DNA of 64,000 bases, from the NCBI RefSeq assembly GCF_003334815.1, contig NZ_QOWO01000024.1; one strand, written 5' to 3'. Shown piece after piece: positions 60,187 through 60,381 of the stretch. Below the pieces are notes generated by a model. The model was given only the letters and a program-made list of their open reading frames with translations. It was not told the DNA's origin and searched no databases. Both the position numbers and the translations under genes were made by a program. The stretch comes from Escherichia coli (lineage in GTDB: Bacteria; Pseudomonadota; Gammaproteobacteria; Enterobacterales; Enterobacteriaceae). Position 1 is the first letter of the stretch, and the number at the start of each line of letters is the position of its first letter.

Positions 60187-60232
60187 TTTTTATCCCTCTT
60201 GCATACACCGTTGTGGGTACAGTCAGGCAATA

Positions 60233-60247
60233 GCAAGGGGAGTGCCA
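60233..60247 (-). promoter_or_regulatory. Sigma54 (-24/-12) promoter for atoDAEB
   Basis: Minus strand reads TGGCAC-tcccc-TTGC, about 47-61 bp upstream of atoD start. Confidence 0.65.
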
Positions 60248-60329
60248 GAATGAGATTATTGGATTTAGTTATTTAACTAATTGAATATGAAGGGATAAAT
60301 TGGATGGGGATTTATAAGGAGAATGAGCG

Positions 60330-60370
60330 GCTATGCAGAAAATTGCGCACTGTGCAAATTTCTGCATAGC
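60330..60370. promoter_or_regulatory. Palindromic enhancer (putative AtoC binding site) upstream of atoDAEB
   Basis: gctatgcagaaaattgcgca-c-tgtgcaaatttctgcatagc: two 20-bp arms in near-perfect inverted repeat, about 90 bp upstream of the sigma54 promoter. Confidence 0.65.
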
Positions 60371-60381
60371 AAGTTTTGGTG

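Follow-up and report, generated by a model that had tools for sequence, protein, structure and literature searches.

A familiar palindrome and sigma54 promoter between atoC and atoD: the control region of the Escherichia coli atoDAEB operon

Between the response regulator gene atoC and the first gene of the atoDAEB operon, this Escherichia coli contig carries a short intergenic region. Does it hold a complete enhancer and sigma54 promoter, as an earlier note on the same DNA had proposed from the letters alone, and is the acetoacetate switch that they would serve intact? The DNA analysed here is a stretch of 64,000 nucleotides, called the window below. Our own data cover the presence and uniqueness of the elements, their spacing and conservation, their identity to K-12, and the intact protein motifs; for AtoC binding, sigma54 occupancy and acetoacetate induction, we use papers on the identical sequence.

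The locus is atoS-atoC-atoDAEB: the NCBIfam equivalogs for AtoC, AtoS and AtoD all score above their curated cut-offs, and the RefSeq annotation gives the same genes (Table 1). For atoS, the NF008468 equivalog scores 997 bits against a cut-off of 646, and the DNA is 100% identical to MG1655 b2219. Over the whole ato locus (55633-64000), the atoC-atoD intergenic region included, identity to E. coli K-12 MG1655 is 100%. Read in reverse complement, the window as such corresponds to ~2.320-2.384 Mb of MG1655 (menD ... arn ... glp ... nrdAB ... gyrA ... yfaA-Q ... ato ... rcsC), and positions 5634-55633 differ from it by 13 single bases in 50 kb, with 0 indels. One of the 13 falls at about codon 541 of gyrA, which is not part of the quinolone-resistance region. 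These single-base differences make the strain a close relative of K-12 and not MG1655 itself.

Table 1. Features of the ato locus and other sigma54 motif matches in the window. Conservation refers to an alignment of 11 atoC-atoD spacers and is given as invariant columns; identity of Escherichia sp. and five Citrobacter species to E. coli.
Feature	Position	Strand	Conservation	Remarks
atoS	61764..63590	-		sensor histidine kinase, 608 aa; senses acetoacetate, phosphorylates AtoC
atoC	60382..61767	-		NtrC-family sigma54 enhancer-binding response regulator, 461 aa; TAA at 60382-60384
AtoC upstream activating sequence, 41-bp palindrome	60330..60370	.	76%; 85-90%	inverted repeat, equal to published half-sites
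Palindrome, distal arm	60351-60370			20 nt
Palindrome, centre	60350			1 nt
Palindrome, proximal arm	60330-60349			20 nt
Spacer adjoining palindrome (spacer A)			8%; 35-41%	
IHF-like site ATTCAATTAGTTA	60274..60286	-		one mismatch to WATCAANNNNTTR; between enhancer and promoter, centre ~-59 from predicted start
sigma54 -24/-12 element CTGGCACTCCCCTTGCT	60232..60248	-	65%; 76-88%	exact TGGCAC-N5-TTGC; ChIP-seq site OS21
Leader from -11 to ATG			62%; 71-82%	
Predicted atoD leader	60187..60221	-		start ~60221 inferred, 12 nt after -12 C; RBS and Spot 42-complementary stretch
atoDAEB, regulated operon	56340..60186	-		ORFs; RefSeq annotation of identical K-12 DNA
atoD	59524-60186	-		NF007394 equivalog match
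atoA	58874-59524	-		ORF; RefSeq annotation of identical K-12 DNA
atoE	57555-58877	-		ORF; RefSeq annotation of identical K-12 DNA
atoB	56340-57524	-		ORF; RefSeq annotation of identical K-12 DNA
sigma54 site IS28, CTGGCATGGAGCCTGCA	11323-11339	-		inside arnT; published ChIP-seq site (Bonocora 2015), high PWM rank
sigma54 site IS27, ATGGCACTGAATATGCT	21104-21120	+		inside yfaY; published ChIP-seq site (Bonocora 2015), high PWM rank
sigma54 match CTGGCAAAAAGCTTGCT	17574-17590	+		top PWM match in window, 15.4 bits; antisense inside arnB
sigma54 match CTGGCACTATTTTTTCT	12011-12027	-		PWM match in arnT

The regulator encoded next to the operon has the features of an NtrC-family bEBP: a receiver domain with its Asp, an AAA+ sigma54-interaction domain, a C-terminal HTH and a score above the equivalog cut-off (NF008469, 1004 bits against 714). 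All 461 of its 461 residues are identical to K-12 AtoC. Pfam places Response_reg at 7-115, Sigma54_activat at 145-311 (E = 2e-75), AAA_lid_14, and HTH_8, a Fis-type HTH, at 415-454. The phospho-acceptor D55 is present in the motif MDIRMP, and Walker B is LLLDE (residues 241-245). The GAFTGA loop and Walker A motif, on which the earlier note had based its view of the switch, were found at residues 220-225 and 173-180 (GESGTGKE), respectively. That the switch looks intact follows from the identity to K-12. In K-12 BW25113, a Pato-GFP reporter is acetoacetate-inducible and gives no signal in the atoS, atoC and atoSC mutants.

Upstream of the promoter, a near-perfect inverted repeat with two 20-bp arms had been described. 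It is present, with small corrections: the arms are complementary at 18/20 positions (90%) and are separated by one nucleotide, giving 41 bp in total rather than 40, and 82 nt lie between the arm nearer to the promoter and TGGCAC, where about 90 had been estimated. Read on the minus strand from 60370 to 60330, the sequence is GCTATGCAGAAATTTGCACA-G-TGCGCAATTTTCTGCATAGC. The palindrome is the sole inverted repeat in the window with arms of 20 nt, at least 18 matches and a gap of at most 5, and 200 random 64-kb sequences of the same composition contain 0 comparable repeats, so that it is clearly far beyond chance. A direct repeat in the same region (60200-60216 and 60363-60379; 71% identity) was judged to be a chance match.

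The AtoC footprint reportedly extends from -146 to -107 relative to the start site. Table 5 of Pilalis et al. 2011 (PMC3118216) lists two AtoC sites, counted from the atoD start: GCTATGCAGAAATTTGCACA (-184..-165) and GCTATGCAGAAAATTGCGCA (-163..-144). The two arms match these half-sites letter for letter, at the same distances from the ATG at 60186. The comparison with the published footprint that the earlier note had suggested thus comes out in its favor, by way of this later paper, whose passages on the sites attribute them to the footprinting and chromatin immunoprecipitation (ChIP) of Matta et al. 2007. Pilalis et al. also describe the palindrome elements as governing both acetoacetate inducibility and AtoC binding, with confirmation by ChIP.

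The promoter string itself had been placed about 50 bp upstream of atoD on the minus strand. An exact match to TGGCAC-N5-TTGC is found there (TGGCACTCCCCTTGC, 60233-60247), the sole one in the window, with the -24 GG at 60245-60246, the -12 GC at 60233-60234 and 46 nt between TTGC and the atoD ATG; the interval given in the earlier note, 60229-60371, brackets both this element and the palindrome. For the position weight matrix (PWM) scan that had been proposed as a check, we built the matrix from the 41 other intergenic sigma54 ChIP-seq sites of Bonocora et al. 2015, with atoD omitted. The atoD site scores 14.2 bits, inside the range of the training sites (8.9-21.6), and its rank of 33/42 makes it a moderate site.

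Could the string be a chance match, with transcription of atoDAEB coming from a sigma70 promoter or from atoSC read-through? The motif statistics leave room for this: 0.42 exact matches are expected per 64 kb, 36% of 64-kb shuffles contain at least one, and by PWM the site ranks only fourth in the window, where about 2.2 equally good sites are expected at random. Taken alone, the string and its score are not beyond chance for 64 kb, and the promoter is credible because of its position, orientation, conservation and published binding data, not because of its motif score. Sigma54 ChIP-seq site OS21 of Bonocora et al. 2015 (PMC4591121) is the same 17-mer, CTGGCACTCCCCTTGCT, without any difference, located 35 nt upstream of atoD and classed as 'confirmed'; Shimada et al. 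2021 report an RpoN gSELEX peak in the atoC/atoD spacer; and in the passage where Pilalis et al. 2011 cite Matta et al. 2007, expression is described as sigma54-dependent. The adjacent regulator, as a GAFTGA bEBP, is able to act only on sigma54. A transcription start at a sigma70 promoter elsewhere had been named as a finding that would count against the proposal; a scan of 60100-60500 revealed no sigma70-like promoter or hexamer pair.

Two further published sigma54 ChIP-seq sites, both inside genes, lie elsewhere in the window (Table 1). A term search of the Bonocora 2015 ChIP-seq paper did not find the matches CTGGCAAAAAGCTTGCT and CTGGCACTATTTTTTCT, which are probably unbound chance matches.

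Conservation was examined by phylogenetic footprinting. With AtoC as the query and one genome per species, syntenic atoS-atoC-atoD-atoA-atoE loci were obtained from one divergent Escherichia (AtoC identity to E. coli 90%) and from five Citrobacter species (83-86%). Their atoC-atoD spacers were aligned to give 11 sequences from seven species, including four divergent E. coli. The motif TGGCAY-N5-TTGC is kept in 11/11 sequences. All seven species have the -12 GC at a distance of 47 from the ATG, and the spacer beside the motif is scrambled. From the palindrome centre to the -24 GG, the distance is 104-107 bp in all seven, or about ten helical turns. Within the palindrome, the half-sites vary at positions 9 and 12 by symmetrical paired changes that preserve the dyad, and position 18, which is A in one arm and G in the other (an A/C mismatch), is invariant in 11/11. 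An equivalent promoter motif also occurs downstream of distant atoC homologues. Because of this conservation and the published occupancy, a chance sigma54 match is excluded for practical purposes; we consider that explanation extremely improbable. As a whole, the alignment shows four conserved blocks (palindrome, -24/-12 element, IHF-like core and 5' leader) amid scrambled spacers, a result that is new here but only confirmatory.

One base near the promoter distinguishes the K-12 lineage: at 60228, five bases downstream of the -12 GC, it has G (ATTGCCTGA), and C (ATTCCCTGA) is found in four other E. coli, in the divergent Escherichia and in all five Citrobacter. It is possible that this base affects promoter strength.

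More distant loci share the same layout. A Nitrospiraceae metagenome-assembled genome (MAG) has atoSC-atoDA-atoE-like synteny (locus L010, 3890-4006) and a Deltaproteobacteria MAG has atoSC-atoE-like synteny (locus L011, 3875-4033); AtoC is 56% identical in each. In both, a TTGCnYA-N1-2-TGCGCA palindrome is found within a few bases of the atoC stop, and TGGCAT-N5-TTGC follows downstream, its GG 85 and 128 bp from the core centre. The two palindromes, TTGCATAGGTGCGCA and TTGCGCAGGTGCGCAA, have the same core as TTGCACAGTGCGCAA of E. coli. This core pattern occurs once per ato-syntenic locus, once in the window and in 0/74 other fetched loci, counts that show its specificity and are not an independent prediction, the pattern having been written after the sequences were seen. 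All ato-linked homologues have the same C-terminal recognition helix as E. coli AtoC, ISRRxLxYKLQEY, and the non-ato bEBPs from the same search have a different one. The AtoC protein and its operator have thus been conserved jointly.

Instead of a protein-binding enhancer, the palindrome might be above all a hairpin in the RNA, ending the atoSC transcript as a terminator or stabilising its 3' end. In all orthologues, 11 nt separate it from the atoC stop; as RNA, it would form an interrupted stem of 16 pairs, and the 96-nt region folds at -31.6 kcal/mol (z = -5.7); an RNA stem also predicts the pair-preserving double changes at the two half-site positions. A rho-independent terminator as its main role was rejected: the hairpin is stable, but no U-run comes after the stem (CCGCUCAUUCUCC follows), and a terminator scan finds none on the minus strand. 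Several observations fit protein binding better. According to published work, AtoC binds the arms both in vivo and in vitro; across phyla, the conserved core and the conserved recognition helix co-vary; and the invariant A/C mismatch suits asymmetric recognition by a protein better than selection for a stem. We therefore consider the hairpin very unlikely to be the main function of the palindrome. A secondary role in the RNA or at its 3' end, on top of AtoC binding, is possible.

With both alternatives weighed, the region is almost certainly the cis-regulatory module native to atoDAEB of E. coli K-12, and none of the analyses run gave evidence contradicting a native AtoC/sigma54 module. The earlier note's reading holds in all its parts: the enhancer-to-promoter geometry of an NtrC-family activator, as described there, is supported by the palindrome, the -24/-12 element and the GAFTGA bEBP. 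The module is ordinary and already known in full. Compared with Pato of E. coli K-12 (Matta et al. 2007, J Bacteriol 189:6324; Pilalis et al. 2011, PMC3118216), it has the same nucleotides, half-sites, positions and AtoC, with no difference within the ato locus. It resembles NtrC/glnAp2-type modules in their IHF-assisted form (glnHp2 or nifH type), with a dyad upstream activating sequence ~100-150 bp upstream, GG/GC elements, a bEBP made of a receiver, an AAA+ GAFTGA domain and a Fis-type HTH, and an A/T-rich IHF-like element in between. Unlike NtrC modules, which have several NtrC sites, ato has a single 41-bp palindrome; its enhancer directly adjoins the stop codon of the gene for the regulator itself, and the signal is acetoacetate, received through AtoS.

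The likely sequence of events can be drawn from established knowledge of the NtrC family. Acetoacetate would activate AtoS, and AtoS would phosphorylate AtoC at D55. AtoC dimers would bind the two inverted 20-bp half-sites and assemble into the AAA+ ring, with RNA polymerase-sigma54 waiting as a closed complex on CTGGCACTCCCCTTGCT. The ~105 bp of DNA from the palindrome centre to the -24 GG would then loop, probably helped by IHF at ~60274-60286, so that the GAFTGA loops could touch sigma54 and ATP hydrolysis could open the promoter, with transcription predicted to start ~35 nt upstream of the atoD ATG. The exact start site, the use of IHF and the looping geometry are those parts of the scheme that we infer.

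As for IHF, matches of the ATTCAATTAGTTA type are at chance level in the window (57 observed, 53 expected), and the A.T.AA.....TA core of the site is invariant in the 11 aligned sequences, with variable flanks. IHF is said to be required at the atoDAEB promoter. A literature search on IHF with AtoC or atoDAEB returned nothing usable.

The start predicted at ~60221 from sigma54 geometry agrees with the distance of 35 in Bonocora et al. Between Escherichia and Citrobacter, the leader (60187-60224) is unusually conserved, with 62% of positions invariant and GTACCCA fully so. In E. coli, it holds CUGUACCC, complementary to the 5' end of the small RNA Spot 42 (GGGUACAG); ACUGUACCCACA pairs with Spot 42 nucleotides 1-12 at mRNA positions 60212-60223. 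Passages of PMC7618054 and PMC6127932 cite atoD as a Spot 42 target (Beisel 2012). The energy of the Spot 42-leader duplex was not discriminating, half of the shuffles folding equally well, and we keep the case on contiguous complementarity and published target status only. An Rfam scan of 60050-60500 gave 0 matches. Targeting of atoD by Spot 42 would explain the glucose repression of Pato reporters.

Across E. coli, the ato block (56340-63590) is accessory. The 381-bp atoC-atoD region is matched in 3925 of 5426 complete genomes, every time between atoC and atoD, and the end of the neighbouring rcsC in 5423 of the same 5426. In strain 117, which lacks ato, rcsC is followed directly by yfaP (locus L089, 6245-6518), and a ~70-nt remnant at the junction, 78% identical to atoS, points to an old deletion. 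In E. coli KH_005, atoC is cut short near its 3' end by an inserted IS1 (locus L088, 3041-3871), and the strain has neither palindrome nor promoter; atoDAEB, yfaP, yfaQ, yfaS and part of yfaT are missing as well.

A broader reading would take atoSC-ato as a cassette with a self-contained, ancient cis module that extends from Enterobacteriaceae to the Nitrospiraceae and Deltaproteobacteria MAGs, is gained or lost as a unit in E. coli, and has an operator possibly doubling as the 3' hairpin of the atoSC mRNA. Its specific elements would be an operator core TTGCrCA-N1-2-TGCGCAA abutting the atoC stop, a sigma54 promoter 85-130 bp downstream and the co-conserved helix ISRRxLxYKLQEY. For all of these parts jointly, we would put the chances at about even.

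As a discovery, the region carries little weight: it is a textbook element in E. coli K-12, already in use as the Pato part of acetoacetate biosensors. Its value is partly one of calibration, a real enhancer-promoter pair having been recovered from raw sequence by a reader without tools. The recurrence of the layout across phyla and the comparative footprint are mildly informative additions. The footprint defines more cleanly which bases are constrained in the operator of AtoC, in promoter and leader and in the IHF-like core, and such a map could help in designing Pato-based sensors or porting them.
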